Source: Dehalococcoidia bacterium (GTDB lineage: Bacteria; Chloroflexota; Dehalococcoidia; UBA2979). From it: a stretch of 64,000 nucleotides of DNA. A model generated the notes under the pieces. The model was not told where the DNA came from. It saw only the letters and a list, made by a program, of their open reading frames with translations, and searched no databases. Below are positions 47,228 through 55,239 of the stretch, piece after piece. Numbering within the stretch: the first letter of the stretch is position 1; every line of letters starts with the position of its first letter. The stretch spans positions 704,001-768,000 of the forward strand of contig OZ244720.1 of NCBI GenBank assembly GCA_965219085.1, read 5' to 3'. Made by a program: the position numbers and the translations under genes.

Positions 47228-47258
47228 CGGGCGATCGGATCGGAGTTGGCGCTGCTAG

Positions 47259-48438
47259 ACCGTATGGAGTGACCGGCTCCGAGTTCGCAAACTCGCGGGT
47301 TACAGACGCGAGGCATGCAGAGCCGCATGCGAAAGGAGCCGGTCAGGAAGATGACTACCACATACGCAGGGATGGATGCACACGCGCGGGCGATCCACGT
47401 GGCGGTGCTGGCGCCGGGGGCCGAGCGGCCCGAGGAGTGGCAGCTGGCGAACGAGCCGAAGGCGGTGAAGCGGCTCGCGCAGCGCCTGCGGCGCATGGCG
47501 CCGGGGCCGCTCGTGGCCTGCTACGAGGCCGGGCCGGGCGGCTTCGCGCTGCAGCGCCGGCTGGAGGCCGAGGGCGTCGAATGCCGGGTGATCGCCCCGG
47601 CGCTGATCCCCAGGCGACCCGGCGACCGCGTCAAGACCGACCGTCGCGACGCACGGAAGCTCGCCGAGCTGCTGCGCGCGGACCTGCTCACGGCGGTGCA
47701 TCCCCCGACCATCGACCAGGAGGCGGTGCGCGACCTCTGCCGGGCGCGCGAGGACGCCGTGACCGACCGCACGCGGGCGCGCCACCGCCTGGCGAAGCTG
47801 CTGCTGCGGCGCGGCATCGCCTACGACGGGCGGAACTGGACGCTGCGGCACCGCCGCTGGCTGCTGACGCTGCGCTTCGAACACCCGGCCGCGCAGGCCA
47901 CCTTCGACGACTACCTGCGCGCGCTCGAGGGCGTGGAGGAGCGGCTGCGCACGCTGGAGCAGGAACTGGCCGCGTGTGCCGCCAGCGACGACTACCGCGA
48001 GGCGGTGGGGCTGCTGCGCTGCTTCCGCGGGGTCGACACGGTGACGGCGATGACGGTGCTGGCCGAACTCGGCGACGTCACGCGCTTCGGCAGCGCCCGG
48101 CAGCTGATGTCCTACCTCGGGCTGACGCCGAGCGAGCACAGCAGCGGGGCGCGCCAGCGGCGGGGGCCGATCACGAAGACAGGGAACAGCCACGTGCGCC
48201 GCATCCTGGTGGAGAGCGCCTGGCACTACCGCCACCCGCCGCGGGTCGGCGCAGCCCTGCGCAAGCGGCGGGAGGGCCAGCCGGGCTGGGCCGTGGTGCT
48301 GGCCGACCGGGCGCAGACCCGGCTCTATCGCCGCCACCGGCGGCTGGCCGCTCACGGCAAGCCGTCGGTCGTGGCGAACACCGCCGTCGCCCGCGAACTT
48401 GCGGGCTACCTGTGGGCGGTGCTGCGGCGTATCCCCGC
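47259..48438 (+). mobile_element. IS110/IS1111-type element, copy 1, 3'-truncated (transposase from 47351; bridge RNA and right end deleted)
   Basis: Matches copy 2 from the left end to 48438; GMD, YEAG, KTDRRDA and GLTPSEHSSG motifs. Confidence 0.92.
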
Positions 48439-48595
48439 CGGCCTCGACCTCCCGAACCATCTCCAGCCGGGCAGCCGGTGTCAGACGCGCGTTAGGATGT
48501 GCCACGAGAGGCTCCTCTCCTGCTCCTGGTGCGTTCGTGACACACACAGCAGCAGGCGGAGCCCCTCACCTGCAACAACCTACGTGGGAACTACA
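48439..48595 (-). mobile_element. IS481-family left-end fragment
   Basis: TGTAGTTCCCACGTAGGTTGTTG identical to the end at 51252; encodes VAHPNARLTPAARLEMVREVEAG; flanked by CTAG at 48597-48600. Confidence 0.85.
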
Positions 48596-48596
48596 C

Positions 48597-50075
<1,479 letters not shown>

Positions 50076-50287
50076 GTACTGCACTCCTGTAGCGCAGTGC
50101 GGGGCGGTGGCGCGTAATGTTGCGGCAGGTTTCCGACTGGCGCTAGTACCCCGCGCAGAGTTCGTCTGCGTTGCGGCCAACACGTGCTAGAATGCATGCG
50201 CTGGCCCCCGGAACGCCGACCGGGAAGCCACTCCCCTCTGGACGCCGAGTCGAATCGAGGCATGCACTCGTGAGAGGGAAGAACCAC

Positions 50288-50954: not shown

Positions 50955-51030
50955 GCCCCCATCGTCTAGGGGACCAGGACGCCACCCTTTCAAGGTGGAA
51001 ACAGCGGTTCGAATCCGCTTGGGGGTACCA
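50955..51030 (+). tRNA. tRNA-Glu (TTC)
   Basis: GCCCCCATCGTCTAG...CCACC-CTTTCAA-GGTGG...GGTTCGAATCC...GGGGGTACCA. Confidence 0.95.
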
Positions 51031-51098
51031 AGGTTTTTAGGGGTTCCTGCAATTTACCGTTCGGTCGATCGCACGAAATGGGGCCATTTTGGGGCCAT

Positions 51099-51251
51099 CT
51101 ACTCAAGCATGTCGTCGAGCGCTTCGGCCGCCGCGTCCTGTTGGCCAGGCAGCACATGGGTGTAGACGTCGAGCGTGAACGCTGCACGAGAGTGCCCGAG
51201 CCGCTGCGCAACCGTCTTGGGGTCGACGCCTGCCCGGATCCATTGGCTAGC
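51099..51251 (-). pseudogene. Tyrosine integrase C-terminal remnant
   Basis: ASQWIRAGVDPKTVAQRLGHSRAAFTLDVYTH; convergent on tRNA-Glu; cut by IS481. Confidence 0.85.
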
Positions 51252-52321
51252 TGTAGTTCCCACGTAGGTTGTTGACACCTGCAGGGCGTCTTGAACCCTG
51301 CAGGGGTTGCTCGTGAAGGGAGCCTCCGGGAGAAGGTGTGAGTAACAAGCCAGCACCTTGCACCTGGAGGCTCCGATGCATCGTAACGCCCGACTGACCT
51401 TCCTCGCCCGCCGCACGATGGTGGAACGCATCGCCGCGGGCCGCGCGGTCGCGCACGTCGCCGCCGAGATGGGCGTCTCCCGTCCGACCGCCTACAAGTG
51501 GTGGCGACGCTGGCTGGAGGAGGGCGAGGCCGGTCTCGAGGACCGCCCCAGCCGCCCGCGACGCTCCCCGGCGCGTGTCCCGGCACGGCTGGAGCGCGCG
51601 ATCGAGCGCCTGCGCCGCCGCGAGAAGCTCGGTCCGGCACGCATCGGCTTCCGCCTCGGGATGCACGCCTCCACCGTCCACCGCGTGCTGTGCCGCCGCG
51701 GCCTCAACCGCCTCGCCTGGCTCGACCGCCCGAGCGGGCAGCGGATCCGCCGCCCCCGGCGCTACGAGCATGCCCGCCCGGGCGACCTGCTGCACATCGA
51801 CGTCAAGAAGCTGGGGCGCATGCCCCCGGGCGGCGGCTGGCGCGCCCACGGACGGGGCCAGGCGCCGCGCAGCCGCGCCGGCTACGCCTTCATCCACTCC
51901 GCCGTGGACGACCACACGCGCCTCGCCTACAGCGAGATCCTCGCGGACGAGCGCGCCGTCAGCGCAGCCGCCTTCCTGCAGCGGGCGTGGGCCTGGTTCG
52001 CCGAGCTCGGCATCGAGGTGCGGGCCGTGCTCACCGATAATGGCGGCGCCTACAAGAGCCGCCTGTTCAGCTCCGCCTGCCGCCTCAGCGGCGGGCGGGC
52101 GAAGCGGACCCGGCCCTACCGCCCGCAAACCAACGGCAAGGTCGAGCGCTTCCACCGCACGCTGCTCGAGGAGTGGGCCTACGTCCGCGTCTACCGCAGC
52201 GAGGCCGAACGCGCAGCCGCCCTCGGACCTTCGCTGCACCGCTACAATCATCACCGTTGCCACACCGCGATCGGAGGTGAACCCCCGATCAGCCGTGTCA
52301 ACAACGTCCCGGGACACTACA
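51252..52321 (+). mobile_element. IS481-family element
   Basis: TGT...ACA ends with imperfect IR (TGTAGTTCCCACGTAGGTTGTTGACA / TGTCAACAACGTCCCGGGACACTACA); CTAG beside both ends once later insertions are removed. Confidence 0.92.
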
Positions 52322-52326
52322 CCTGA
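51376..52326 (+). CDS. IS481 DDE transposase
   Basis: HRNARLT, LLHIDVKK, VLTDNG, PQTNGKVERF; stop codon lies outside the element end. Confidence 0.92.
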   Translation: MHRNARLTFLARRTMVERIAAGRAVAHVAAEMGVSRPTAYKWWRRWLEEGEAGLEDRPSRPRRSPARVPARLERAIERLRRREKLGPARIGFRLGMHASTVHRVLCRRGLNRLAWLDRPSGQRIRRPRRYEHARPGDLLHIDVKKLGRMPPGGGWRAHGRGQAPRSRAGYAFIHSAVDDHTRLAYSEILADERAVSAAAFLQRAWAWFAELGIEVRAVLTDNGGAYKSRLFSSACRLSGGRAKRTRPYRPQTNGKVERFHRTLLEEWAYVRVYRSEAERAAALGPSLHRYNHHRCHTAIGGEPPISRVNNVPGHYT

Positions 52327-52399
52327 TATGGAGTGACCGGCTGTCAAGCAGCACCGGCGGTGGTCGTGGCGATCCGGCTCCGGAACGGGGGGAGATGGA

Positions 52400-52600
52400 C
52401 GAACGAGGGCGCTGCTTCGACGACGTGTCACTCTGATATTCGCGGGTTGCCTGTGGCCTTGCCGCATGACCGTGCTTCGCCGGGAGGGGTCGCCGTCTAG
52501 CATCGCGGGTTGACGGCGCCGGGCGCCGCTGCCGCATAGGTGTACCGCGCATCCTCCTGAGCCTGCCCTCGCTCATCCACCCCCTCCTGCTCCGGAACGG
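52400..52600 (-). ncRNA. Predicted bridge/seek RNA (ends approximate)
   Basis: Two parallel loops [guide]AUGCGGCA...CAACCCGCG[guide]AG; the guides match the element ends and the insertion site. Confidence 0.8.
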
Positions 52601-52643
52601 CGTACCGCCGTCTCCGCCCTCGCCGCGGACCGGGCGCGTTGTA

Positions 52644-53780
52644 TCAGGCCGCCGCCTGCTCCCGGGCGCCGGCCTTCGGCTCTCCCGCGGATGCGGGGAT
52701 ACGCCGCAGCACCGCCCACAGGTAGCCCGCAAGTTCGCGGGCGACGGCGGTGTTCGCCACGACCGACGGCTTGCCGTGAGCGGCCAGCCGCCGGTGGCGG
52801 CGATAGAGCCGGGTCTGCGCCCGGTCGGCCAGCACCACGGCCCAGCCCGGCTGGCCCTCCCGCCGCTTGCGCAGGGCTGCGCCGACCCGCGGCGGGTGGC
52901 GGTAGTGCCAGGCGCTCTCCACCAGGATGCGGCGCACGTGGCTGTTCCCTGTCTTCGTGATCGGCCCCCGCCGCTGGCGCGCCCCGCTGCTGTGCTCGCT
53001 CGGCGTCAGCCCGAGGTAGGACATCAGCTGCCGGGCGCTGCCGAAGCGCGTGACGTCGCCGAGTTCGGCCAGCACCGTCATCGCCGTCACCGTGTCGACC
53101 CCGCGGAAGCAGCGCAGCAGCCCCACCGCCTCGCGGTAGTCGTCGCTGGCGGCACACGCGGCCAGTTCCTGCTCCAGCGTGCGCAGCCGCTCCTCCACGC
53201 CCTCGAGCGCGCGCAGGTAGTCGTCGAAGGTGGCCTGCGCGGCCGGGTGTTCGAAGCGCAGCGTCAGCAGCCAGCGGCGGTGCCGCAGCGTCCAGTTCCG
53301 CCCGTCGTAGGCGATGCCGCGCCGCAGCAGCAGCTTCGCCAGGCGGTGGCGCGCCCGCGTGCGGTCGGTCACGGCGTCCTCGCGCGCCCGGCAGAGGTCG
53401 CGCACCGCCTCCTGGTCGATGGTCGGGGGATGCACCGCCGTGAGCAGGTCCGCGCGCAGCAGCTCGGCGAGCTTCCGTGCGTCGCGACGGTCGGTCTTGA
53501 CGCGGTCGCCGGGTCGCCTGGGGATCAGCGCCGGGGCGATCACCCGGCATTCGACGCCCTCGGCCTCCAGCCGGCGCTGCAGCGCGAAGCCGCCCGGCCC
53601 GGCCTCGTAGCAGGCCACGAGCGGCCCCGGCGCCATGCGCCGCAGGCGCTGCGCGAGCCGCTTCACCGCCTTCGGCTCGTTCGCCAGCTGCCACTCCTCG
53701 GGCCGCTCGGCCCCCGGCGCCAGCACCGCCACGTGGATCGCCCGCGCGTGTGCATCCATCCCTGCGTATGTGGTAGTCAT
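52644..53780 (-). CDS. IS110-family DEDD recombinase (378 aa)
   Basis: RuvC-like D/E/D/D residues and C-terminal GL.P....SG serine motif. Confidence 0.93.
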   Translation of the reverse strand: MTTTYAGMDAHARAIHVAVLAPGAERPEEWQLANEPKAVKRLAQRLRRMAPGPLVACYEAGPGGFALQRRLEAEGVECRVIAPALIPRRPGDRVKTDRRDARKLAELLRADLLTAVHPPTIDQEAVRDLCRAREDAVTDRTRARHRLAKLLLRRGIAYDGRNWTLRHRRWLLTLRFEHPAAQATFDDYLRALEGVEERLRTLEQELAACAASDDYREAVGLLRCFRGVDTVTAMTVLAELGDVTRFGSARQLMSYLGLTPSEHSSGARQRRGPITKTGNSHVRRILVESAWHYRHPPRVGAALRKRREGQPGWAVVLADRAQTRLYRRHRRLAAHGKPSVVANTAVARELAGYLWAVLRRIPASAGEPKAGAREQAAA

Positions 53781-53876
53781 CTTCCTGACCGGCTCCTTTC
53801 GCATGCGGCTCTGCATGCCTCGCGTCTGTAACCCGCGAGTTTGCGAACTCGGAGCCGGTCACTCCATACGGTCTAG

Positions 53877-55052
53877 GGATGGTCTGAACAACTCGCCTGA
53901 GCGGGTGAGCAGATGCGATCATGGGGCGACCCGGAGAGGGGCGGCCCATGCAGCAGCGTTCGTTCGGCAGCGTCGAGTACGAGCACAAGAAGGTCAAGAC
54001 GAGGCGGCAGGCGTTCCTCGAGCGCATGGACGGGCTCGTCCCCTGGGCTGAGCTGGAGCAGCGCATCGCGCCCGTCTACCCGAAGCGCGGCCGCGGACGC
54101 CGCCCCTACGCGCTGCGCGTGATGCTGCGCATCCACTGCCTGCAGCTCTGGTTCAACCTCAGCGACCCCGGCATGGAGCAGGAACTCTACGACTCCCGCT
54201 CGATGCTCGAGTTCGCCGGTCTCAGCCTCTCCGAGCCGATCCCCGATGAGACGACGATCCTCAACTTCCGCCACCTGCTGGAGCGCCATCAGCTGGGAAC
54301 GGCGCTGTTCGCGACGATCAACGCGCACCTGGCACGGCAGGGGCTGCAGGTGTGCGAGGGCACGATCGTGGACTCCACGATCATCAGCGCGCCGTCATCG
54401 ACGAAGAACCGCGAGCGTGCGCGCGACCCCGAGATGCACCAGACCAGCAAGGGCCGGCAGTGGTACTTCGGGATGAAGCTGCACGCCGGCACGGATGCGC
54501 GGACGGGGCTGGTCCACAGCGTGAGCACGACGGCGGCGAACGTCTCAGACGTGACCGAGGCGCATCGCCTCTTGCACGGCGGCGAGACGGAGGCGTGGGG
54601 CGATGCCGGCTACCAGGGAGTGGAGAAGCGCCCGGAGCACGCGGGGTCGGAGGTGAGCTGGCAGGTGGCGATGCGTCCGGGTCTCAGGCGGCAGCTGGCG
54701 CCGGGGGGCGAGGAGGCGCAGGCGGAGCGGCGCAAGGCCTCGGTGCGCGCCAAGGCTGAGCATCCGTTTCTCTACGTGAAGCGGCACTTCGGGTACGCGC
54801 AGGTCCGCTACCGGGGTCTTGAGAAGAACCGCCAGCGTCTCATGCTGCTGCTCGGTTTCACGAACCTGTTGCGAGCCGAGCCTCAGCTCGCCTGATCGCG
54901 GGAGCGCTGCGTCCGGAATCGCTCCCGCAGGCGAGCCCGCAGCGGAGTGGGAACGGGATCGCCCCCTGAACCGCGGCATCGGCCCCCGCAGCGCGGCTCG
55001 GCACGCCGATCGGCCCGCACCGCGCCCGATACGCCACCTGTTCAGACCTTCC
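53877..55052 (+). mobile_element. IS5-family element with CTAG target duplication
   Basis: IRs GGATGGTCTGAACA / TGTTCAGACCTTCC; CTAG at 53873-76 and 55053-56. Confidence 0.93.
53948..54895 (+). CDS. IS5 transposase
   Basis: PDETTILNFRHLL, IVDSTII, WYFGMKLH, GDAGY, VRAKAEHPF, RYRGL. Confidence 0.93.
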   Translation: MQQRSFGSVEYEHKKVKTRRQAFLERMDGLVPWAELEQRIAPVYPKRGRGRRPYALRVMLRIHCLQLWFNLSDPGMEQELYDSRSMLEFAGLSLSEPIPDETTILNFRHLLERHQLGTALFATINAHLARQGLQVCEGTIVDSTIISAPSSTKNRERARDPEMHQTSKGRQWYFGMKLHAGTDARTGLVHSVSTTAANVSDVTEAHRLLHGGETEAWGDAGYQGVEKRPEHAGSEVSWQVAMRPGLRRQLAPGGEEAQAERRKASVRAKAEHPFLYVKRHFGYAQVRYRGLEKNRQRLMLLLGFTNLLRAEPQLA

Positions 55053-55239
55053 CTAGGTCATCGACGGGCTGGACACAGCAGCCCATGCTGCCATCGCAGC
55101 AGCGCCGACATGGCGACGCGGGCGTGCAAAAGGGGTCTTCCCGGTTCTACGTAATGCTCTCGTCCTGAGGCCCCCCGAGCGGGGGCCAGGGATCAGTCCT
55201 TGGGGGCTCCCGCAGCCACGCCGGAATGTCTCGCACCGC

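Follow-up and report, generated by a model that had tools for sequence, protein, structure and literature searches.

The window, a stretch of 64,000 nt, comes from a GC-rich genome assembled as a single 3.3-Mb contig whose closest public relatives are MAGs of the Dehalococcoidia/Tepidiformaceae. Within it, an insertion sequence of the IS110 family abuts an element of the IS481 family, which raises the question of how the one came to lie at the end of the other. The first-pass annotation held that the 3′ non-coding region of the IS110-family element encodes a bridge RNA with four readable guides, and that its target loop is programmed against IS481 ends. The answer depends on what kind of element this is, on whether the RNA and its guides hold up across relatives, and on what the guides specify in this genome. 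The element in the window, called copy A, comprises the following features.

52325 to 53872, minus strand: IS1111-type (IS110 family) insertion sequence, copy A; 1548 bp, or 1550 bp with one CT copy
52323 to 52324, no strand: CT core at the junction adjoining the IS481-family element; the second CT is at 53873 to 53874
52325 to 52327: 3-bp terminal extension, right end
52328 to 52342, no strand: subterminal inverted repeat, right-end copy, ATGGAGTGACCGGCT, 15 bp, the reverse complement of 53853 to 53867
53853 to 53867, no strand: subterminal inverted repeat, left-end copy of the pair ATGGAGTGACCGGCT / AGCCGGTCACTCCAT, 15 bp
53868 to 53872: left-end extension ACGGT, 7 bp once the core is counted
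52644 to 53780, minus strand: DEDD recombinase gene, encoding 378 aa when read from the ATG at 53780 and 390 aa when read from an ATG further upstream, at 53816
52325 to 52643, minus strand: 3′ non-coding region of 319 nt between the stop codon (52644 to 52646) and the right end

The boundaries follow from an empty paralogous site at genome position 1670620, which reads GGGACACTACACCTAGGGATGGTCTGAAC, that is, the two flanks of copy A minus the element. The insertion therefore consists of 1548 bp plus one duplicated CT. CT is the sole sequence common to both junctions and the empty site, and the same core dinucleotide is found in target and donor. A contig from run X1 joins 52322 to 53873 with 1550 skipped, in agreement with these boundaries. 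We considered this contig as proof that copy A had been excised and rejected that reading, since its simplest source is the empty paralogue.

The recombinase matches DEDD_Tnp_IS110 (PF01548, E 2.8e-20) and Transposase_20 (PF02371, E 2.1e-22) in Pfam, and scores 256.5 bits against a cutoff of 140 for the NCBIfam model NF033542, ‘IS110 family RNA-guided transposase’. When it is aligned to the IS621 and ISCro4 transposases, for which structures are solved, the GxD, E, KTDxxDAR and LTPxxxxSG motifs are kept. Its translation contains LGLTPSEHSSG, an instance of the GL-P----S(T)G motif of the IS1111 C-terminal domain (PMC11187229). The remaining anatomy is also that of the IS1111 group. Read in gene orientation, the terminal extensions are AGACCGT on the left (core AG included) and ATC on the right, matching the 7 bp (or 6) and 3 bp described for IS1111 (PMC11187229). 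The 15-bp subterminal inverted repeats of copy A lie within the range of about 7–17 bp that characterizes the group (11–16 bp in the relatives collected here), and the non-coding DNA is, as in the group, mostly downstream of the gene (319 nt versus about 90 nt upstream). Taken together with the RNA described below, these features confirm, as far as sequence can, that copy A is an IS110-family, IS1111-group insertion sequence with a DEDD recombinase and a downstream bridge (or seek) RNA.

Other copies occur in the same genome, one of them in the window.

47258 to 48438, plus strand: copy C, truncated; the end of the gene is missing, as are the RNA and the right end of the element; the flank on the left ends in ...CTGCTAG

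Copy B (genome positions 3084442–3085990) differs from copy A at 2 of 1549 bases and, like copy A, is intact; copy C is identical to copy A across 1181 bp. Copies D and E are variants (89% and 95%, respectively), and the donor-loop DNA is interrupted in each. Given that A, B and C are identical save for the 2 bases between A and B, the element appears to be active or recently active.

We then examined the proposed RNA. Re-reading of the minus strand of 52325–52643 confirmed two parallel loops with a common scaffold, both of which carry AUGCGGCA...CAACCCGCG. The interval first assigned to the RNA proved to be the whole 3′ non-coding region, right-end repeat included; the RNA core itself occupies only about 52418–52549. 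The core and its four guides are placed as follows.

52418 to 52549, minus strand: bridge/seek RNA core, target-loop domain followed by donor-loop domain, delimited by the consensus structure of 39 homologues
52537 to 52544, minus strand: 5′ guide of the target loop, UACACCU(A), the same sequence as TACACCT(A) in the empty target
52497 to 52503, minus strand: target loop, 3′ guide AUGCUAG, complementary to CTAGCAT; 4 of 7 positions at copies A and B, 6 of 7 at copy C
52468 to 52474, minus strand: donor loop, 5′ guide (C)ACGGUC, identical to the plus-strand end ACGGT-C at 53868 to 53873
52433 to 52440, minus strand: donor loop, 3′ guide (A)AUAUCAG, complementary to plus-strand CT-GATAT at 52323 to 52329

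A search for relatives of the recombinase gave 105 confirmed matches, of which 79 distinct loci were retained, and the 170-nt RNA core was compared with these loci and copy A (80 sequences). This returned 72 homologous RNA matches, copy A included; a collection by sequence pattern gave 41 stretches. The alignment contains 39 distinct sequences and reaches relatives at about 41–50% protein identity in other phyla. The RNAalifold consensus consists of two parallel domains, in each of which an internal loop separates a proximal stem from the distal stem UGCGG/CCGCG, and has 24 pairs, 12 of them with compensatory changes. In the five helices, which comprise 22 named pairs, 97.1% of cells across the 39 sequences are paired and 11 pairs show compensatory change. 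None of 500 shuffles had covariation as high for these pairs, and slid controls were only 25–47% paired. The guides are the variable columns within an otherwise conserved RNA. Because the two-loop scaffold recurs in 72 matches, in which guides vary, stems covary and guides track flanks and ends, the arrangement cannot be put down to chance.

It could be argued that the motifs of the 3′ region are DNA sites bound by the recombinase protein rather than parts of an RNA. A scan of 51000–55000 with the Rfam 15 families at E up to 1 gave no match, and none of the contigs of the two RNA libraries among the four runs (each available as contigs) lies over 52325–52643, an absence that neither shows nor excludes expression; metatranscriptome contigs cover pieces of the gene only (53098–53432, 52733–53105 and 53437–53586). 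Binding sites in DNA would not account for compensatory changes that maintain five helices in 39 sequences, nor for the fact that each loop has one top-strand and one bottom-strand guide, the published pattern for such RNAs, in which the two guides overlap on the core (PMC11187229; PMC11208160). We therefore regard the DNA-site reading as extremely improbable and the bridge RNA reading of the 3′ region as secure on comparative grounds. Bridge RNAs have been predicted in 93.0% of IS1111 elements (PMC11208160). A scan of 52250–53950 found neither a sigma-70-like promoter nor an intrinsic terminator; a TTGACA lies 17 nt from the right end, and in the joined form it is followed by no good -10. We infer that the RNA would be produced and bound by the recombinase, and that a circular intermediate and catalysis would follow.

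All four guide matches of the first-pass annotation were recovered. In the target loop, UACACCU (52538–52544) is identical to TACAC-CT at 52318–52324, and (A)UGCUAG (52497–52503) is complementary to CT-AGCA at 6 of 6 positions in the right flank of copy C (CTAGCAG) and at 4 of 6 in that of copy A (CTAGGG). In the donor loop, ACGGUC (52468–52473) is identical to the element end at 53868–53873, and AUAUCAG (52433–52439) is complementary to CT-GATAT at 52323–52329.

The covariation between guides and DNA that had been suggested as a check was evaluated across the relatives. Element ends were located through their subterminal repeats and the guides were compared with the flanks, leaving out 22 matches without recognisable ends and the 10 second-module rows of loci L039–L050. 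The resulting set has 29 different combinations of guides and site, and 18 different guide pairs. The 5′ target guide agrees with its own flank at all five non-core positions in 14 of the 18 guide pairs, and its mean match is 4.50 of 5, as opposed to 1.26 when guides and flanks are cross-paired (0 of 20,000 permutations as high). For the 3′ target guide the signal is weaker but present, with means of 2.94 and 2.09, respectively (1 of 20,000 permutations as high). The flanks vary greatly from element to element, as in AGGTGTA, AGCTGTA, AGTTGTC, AGTCTCT, AGCGTTC, ATCGCAC, AGAACGT, AGGGGCG, AGGGTGT and AGCCAGG. Within the host genome, copy E has the guide UACAGCU and the flank TACAG-CT.

The donor loop covaries with the element ends as well. 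At the left end, the 5′ donor guide is CACUGUC with ACAGT in L035 and L037, and AAGGGUC with ACCCT in L039–L048; at the right end, the 3′ donor guide of L039–L048 is AUAUGAG with ATATG. The 5′ donor guide is hard to read in the most distant relatives (L062, L084, L085 and L090). In the L029-type lineage the pairing register is shifted by one nucleotide, which counts against the model. Elements that share 87% or more amino-acid identity have a nearly constant scaffold, with at least eight variants of the target loop. As a separate observation, L039–L050 have two bridge-RNA modules in tandem; the first module has the target loop that fits the flanks, and the second has the donor loop that fits the right end.

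What the target loop specifies in the host genome is best seen from the neighbours of copy A and from the other sites of the same sequence.

51252 to 52321, plus strand: element of the IS481 family that adjoins the insertion with its right tip, ...GGGACACTACA; NCBIfam IS481 model, 327.6 bits against a cutoff of 224
53877 to 55052, plus strand: IS5-family element on the other side; NCBIfam IS5 model, 331 bits; CTAG duplication at 53873 to 53876 and 55053 to 55056
48592 to 48600, plus strand: TACACCTAG site without an insertion, at the tip of a fragment of IS481

The IS481-family element has the Pfam domains rve and LZ_Tnp_IS481, and its tips, TGTA...TACA, are flanked by NCTAGN, the sequence that follows IS481-type tips in this genome. 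The genome contains 27 IS5 ends of the form GGATGGTCTGA, nearly all of them after CTAG, TTAG or CTAA. Removal of the IS5 from the right flank restores TACA/CCTAGG, a normal 6-bp IS481 duplication. The crossover CT thus lies inside the IS481 target duplication, 1 bp outside the IS481, and the element lands beside the IS481 rather than on it. Reading TACAC-CT-AG as the IS481 tip (TACA) plus its duplicated NCTAGN site, as the first-pass annotation did, therefore holds for the window element in its host genome.

There are six TACACCTAG sites in the genome, four empty and two occupied. Five of the six are at IS481-type tips, with 11 to 40 nt identical to the inverted repeats of transposase-bearing IS481 copies; among the four empty sites, three carry 16–40 nt of IS481-type repeat. 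One empty site is the near-match noted earlier in the window, TACACCTAG(A), which was found at 48592 as described and whose 40 upstream nt are identical to the inverted repeat of the IS481 copies at genome positions 418360 and 1679098. The sixth site (1428198) is uncertain and has a 36-bp tip-like remnant between two CTAGs. The occupied sites are those of the intact copies A and B, which have the same orientation; each lies within the duplicated CTAG, 1 bp beyond the tip. Copy B adjoins a 19-nt remnant (AACGTCTGTGGACGTTACA) that is an exact match to the other inverted repeat of this IS481 type, and on its other side is the opposite end of another IS5. The same AG-C-TGTA geometry is found in a second genome at L032, where the recombinase is 82% identical and the guides are UACAGCU and GUCCUAG. 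L032 adjoins the left tip of a different IS481-family element, which has the LZ_Tnp_IS481 domain and shares 43% identity with the one in the window.

Part of the pattern of occupancy involves IS5. Three TACACCTAG sites have an IS5, including both occupied ones, and 0 of 3 sites without IS5 are occupied; the guides leave this pattern unexplained. The both-guide perfect site TACACCTAGCA, at genome position 1428196, is empty. Two candidate explanations that involve the IS5 were rejected. That its end is the real target does not fit, as the guide matches nothing in IS5 beyond CTAG. A later IS5 insertion that displaced the true right target is not favoured either, since the bases past the far CTAG (GTCAT for copy A, CGTCG for the paralogue and TGTCC for copy B) fit AGCAT poorly.

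Copies A and B differ in their upstream repeat sequence and in the IS5 end, and their shared flanks are short; thus, we treat them as separate insertions. Leftward they share TACACCT only, followed by GGGACAC in one and GGACGT in the other, and rightward they share 13 nt before opposite ends of IS5 begin. A dependent origin, in which one insertion was copied through recombination among the many IS481 and IS5 copies, would be in keeping with the patchwork character of the region: the hexamers flanking the window IS481 are unequal (GCTAGC and CCTAGG), the IS481-CCTAG-IS5 junction is present at two loci with differing outer flanks, and copy C is fused to an IS481 fragment. The sequence shared by A and B nevertheless offers no long homology that could have carried the element, and there are no long identical flanks beyond the IS tips, which makes copying by recombination unlikely in our judgement.

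The proposed mechanism is as follows. The donor loop (ACGGUC / AUAUCAG) would pair with the two strands of the joined ends, TACGGT-CT-GATATG, and the target loop (UACACCUA / AUGCUAG) would pair with TACAC-CT-AG(CAT). Strand exchange at the common CT would then give insertion in one orientation with no other duplication. In the host genome this address exists only where an IS481-type TACA tip meets a duplicated NCTAGN, so that the element would land 1 bp beyond the end of an IS481. The 5′ target guide and CTAG would supply most of the specificity, the remainder of the 3′ guide being loosely matched, as in IS621. We consider it quite probable that this is an IS1111-type insertion sequence, active or recently active, whose downstream-encoded bridge (seek) RNA guides its DEDD recombinase to junctions of IS481 tips and NCTAGN.

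The sites used by relatives show how far this address extends. Most of their insertions are not at IS481 ends, so the IS481 adjacency expected by the first-pass annotation did not hold across the family. Its proposal of IS481-end targeting stands for copies A and B, for L032 and for five of the six TACACCTAG sites; as a rule that is general or exclusive it is not supported. Relatives are most often found at TACAG-CT-ACCAC, a site that falls between residues 327 and 328 of a transposase of the IS1380 family (332.4 bits with NCBIfam) and is occupied in 13 loci of two genomes and by copy E. Two relatives have UACACCU with CUGCUAG: L038 (82% amino-acid identity) is in a short palindrome flanked by CTAG, and L061 (71%) lies within a gene for an ABC-2 transporter. 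A thiolase gene is disrupted by L025. Ten flanking ORFs were scanned, and six of them matched no family. A scan of metagenomes for the exact UACACCU target loop returned one stretch, an AT-rich chance match without an element, and thus no extra copies of this guide type.

These sites also bear on whether the guide is real while the link to IS481 is a by-product. On that reading a 7-nt left match plus CTAG would suffice (a half-match), IS481 ends would merely be the sole supply of TACACCTAG in a GC-rich genome, and the ancestral or preferred address would be elsewhere, for example TACAC-CT-AGCAG, which is also encoded by the distant L038 and L061. It would explain why, at A and B, the 3′ guide pairs with no more than CTAG. 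Both L038 and L061 keep their guide pair, yet one of them is in the ABC-2 gene, and the sisters with UACAGCU are in the IS1380 gene at CT-ACCAC though some encode ...CUAG (ACGCUAG in copy E); half-match insertion has in addition been reported for IS621 (10.64898/2026.08.31.748434). A by-product would not lead one to expect three separate insertions (A, B and L032) in two genomes with the same geometry at three IS481-family repeat sequences, nor 3′ guides that, across the clade, very often end in CUAG, the IS481 target. We give this alternative an appreciable but clearly minor weight. Guidance to the junctions themselves remains our preferred reading, and we infer that they may be a selected address rather than only the places where the motif exists.

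The interruption of the donor-loop DNA in copies D and E is a second IS110-family element, 1506 bp long, with a 419-aa DEDD recombinase and its non-coding region upstream of the gene.

52443 to 52444, no strand: insertion spot of the second element in the donor-loop DNA, empty in copy A and occupied in other copies

All six close copies found of this second element are at one donor-loop spot, between ...CTGATATTCGC and CGGGTTGCC, in donor-loop DNA that reads CTGATATTCGCGGGTTGCC. They are found in D and E (host genome), L031, L138 and L139 (second genome) and L146 (third), and thus span at least three genomes and at least four host variants. The next relatives of the second element are 56% identical or less and belong to the Actinomycetota. 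A loose end of run X4 at 52443 reads its first bases. The predicted fold of its left-end RNA has two stem-loop domains. In our reading of the first domain, GAUAUUCGC would be identical to the left target and CAAUCCG would be complementary to CGGGTTG (one G.U), with a small hairpin between them; in the second domain, AUAGGAAC and CAUCGCU would fit the element's own ends. The left guide is invariant in all six copies and the target in L146 has one mismatch, so that these copies offer no covariation test for the second element.

A possible reading is that Dehalococcoidia-type genomes such as these contain a small network of RNA-guided insertion sequences that land on each other and on other insertion sequence families. 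The target loops of IS1111-type elements would be set to IS481 tip/CTAG junctions or to one codon position of an IS1380 transposase gene, and the target loop of an IS110-group element (GAUAUUCGC / CAAUCCG) would be set to the conserved scaffold DNA of the IS1111 donor loop, so that it would break the guide-RNA gene of another transposon. We lean slightly towards this view. The homing of the second element to donor-loop DNA points to guide-RNA genes as possible targets in their own right. We found no description in the literature of an insertion sequence landing in a bridge-RNA gene, with the qualification that supplementary target tables may hold cases.

The window element provides a natural IS1111-type recombinase/bridge RNA pair outside the Proteobacteria that is well documented by sequence, and the target-loop variants on a near-constant scaffold offer useful material for working out which positions of the loop can be altered at will. 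A junction beside another insertion sequence, or a position inside an insertion sequence gene, would be a low-cost landing place, in DNA that the host can lose. CTAG is a landing mark common to three insertion sequence families in the host genome, namely IS481, IS5 and that of the window element. The tetranucleotide is rare in many genomes.

The kind of element is already known, and the IS481-junction address is new. We found no description of IS481 ends as a target of IS110 or IS1111 elements in the literature, including 10.64898/2026.08.14.744561, with the reservation that supplementary target tables (the logos of PMC11187229; Supplementary Data 2 and Table 5 of PMC11208160) may hold cases; in the accessible text of 10.64898/2026.08.31.748434, IS481 is named only within a list of circle junctions. 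The IS1111 elements with described seekRNAs, ISEc11, ISKpn4/ISPst6 and ISPa11 (Siddiquee et al. 2024, PMC11187229), resemble the window element in the DEDD transposase with GL-P----SG, the subterminal repeats, the 7+3 extensions and the long downstream non-coding region, and in having an RNA segment for each target strand, with the complement of the top strand first. They differ in their targets, which are a short linear site, attC sites or REP rather than an IS481-type tip/CTAG junction, and the family is quoted at 330–350 aa for the recombinase, as opposed to 378 aa in the window element.

IS621 (Durrant et al. 2024, PMC11208160; structures 8wt6 and others) likewise has two internal loops, each with two guides that overlap a CT core, and a strong left and short right target guide, the native right target guide being 4 nt (PMC11208160); the catalytic motifs of the two recombinases align. 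In contrast, its RNA is upstream, in the left end, and it has almost no subterminal repeats, whereas the RNA of the window element is downstream and its repeats are 15 bp. The two proteins show low similarity (a partial match with E 2.8e-11). The IS110-family element ISPpu9 of Pseudomonas putida (PMC12288879) has a downstream small RNA and RNA modules that also occur apart from the gene, comparable to the tandem modules of L039–L050, but it targets REP and belongs to another lineage.

Insertion at the ends of Tn21-family transposons is known for some members of IS1111, and these share with the window element a fixed address at the end of another mobile element. Those members insert inside the 38-bp repeat of a Tn3-family transposon. 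The window element, in contrast, lies within the duplicated CTAG, 1 bp outside the IS481 tip, and does not disrupt the end of the IS481.

The target guides vary, while the scaffold around them is nearly constant. Where copy A, the intact IS1111-type element in the window, has AGGTGTA as its 5' target guide (window 52537-52544), a contig of sequencing run X1 that accounts for approximately half of the depth reads GGGTGAG. The 3' guide of that contig is changed too (window 52500-52502) and the scaffold is unchanged, and we therefore conclude that a guide-swapped variant, of the type found at locus L029, co-occurs in the same sample. Within the genome itself, a variant copy carries a different pair of guides.

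Genome 3172967-3175986: copy D, target guides AAGCACU / ACAUCAG

The guides of copy D match neither of its flanks, and its 3' target guide, ACAUCAG, is similar to the donor guide AUAUCAG. When copy D is compared with copy E, the other interrupted copy, the first 119 bp and the left flank are identical. Copy D seems to have arisen by recombination.

A second IS110-group element, 1506 bp long, encodes a 419-aa DEDD recombinase and has an upstream non-coding region. It occupies one identical spot in the donor-loop DNA of IS1111-type elements in all six close copies, from at least three genomes.

L093:2801-4306 and L094 (the loci of copies D and E), L031:3809-5314, L138, L139 and L146: copies of the second IS110-group element
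Window 52443/52444: its insertion spot, empty in the window

The putative RNA of this element contains GAUAUUCGC and CAAUCCG, which match either side of the insertion spot; the junctions have just 1 nt (C) in common, not 2.

Another arrangement of the bridge RNA is found in the L039-L050 elements, whose recombinase is 61% identical. These carry two tandem modules with no internal end between them.

L041:3680-4355, and equivalents in L039-L050: tandem bridge-RNA modules

In module a, the target loop matches the flanks (CCCAG | AGGTCCC) and the donor guide is off by 2. In module b, it is the donor guide that matches the right end, and the target loop differs (GGAACC / AUAUCAG).

The transposase ORF of the neighbouring IS481 reads through the IS481 right inverted repeat (window 52300-52326; genome 1670620). 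At the empty paralogous site (genome 1670620) its stop is the TAG within the flanking CTAG; at copy A the stop is TGA, whose T comes from the core and whose remaining bases are the start of the insertion. Directly adjacent to the left of the near-identical copy B (genome 3084380-3084441, L095) are two neighbouring 22-bp perfect palindromes, TGTAGTGTCCCGGGACACTACA and TGTAACGTCTGTGGACGTTACA, flanked by CCTAGG and CCTAG. Each is composed of the tip of an IS481 repeat with its internal hairpin, together with the same tip inverted, and they could be IS481 footprints or miniature IS481 derivatives. The truncated copy C is itself fused to an IS481 fragment.

Window 47258-48595: copy C and the fused IS481 fragment

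Copy C ends at the equivalent of 52693, where it is joined to the final 157 bp of an IS481 copy, and a deletion reaching from one IS element into the other seems to have produced the fusion. A malic-enzyme-like gene (48597-50183) shares bases of its stop codon with the tip of this IS481 copy (TACA|CCTAGA).

CTAG also precedes a repeat end, TGTCCTGAGTTGTTAACGCG (genome 1939789 and 3087175; L035:4050-4090). A Pfam search with the 351-aa ORF flanking this repeat end gave no match. Both copies of the repeat end in this genome have an IS5 inserted within the preceding CTAG, and at L035/L119 an IS1111-type relative whose guide is GGACACU occupies the same CTAG / TGTCCTGAGTTGTTAACGCG junction.
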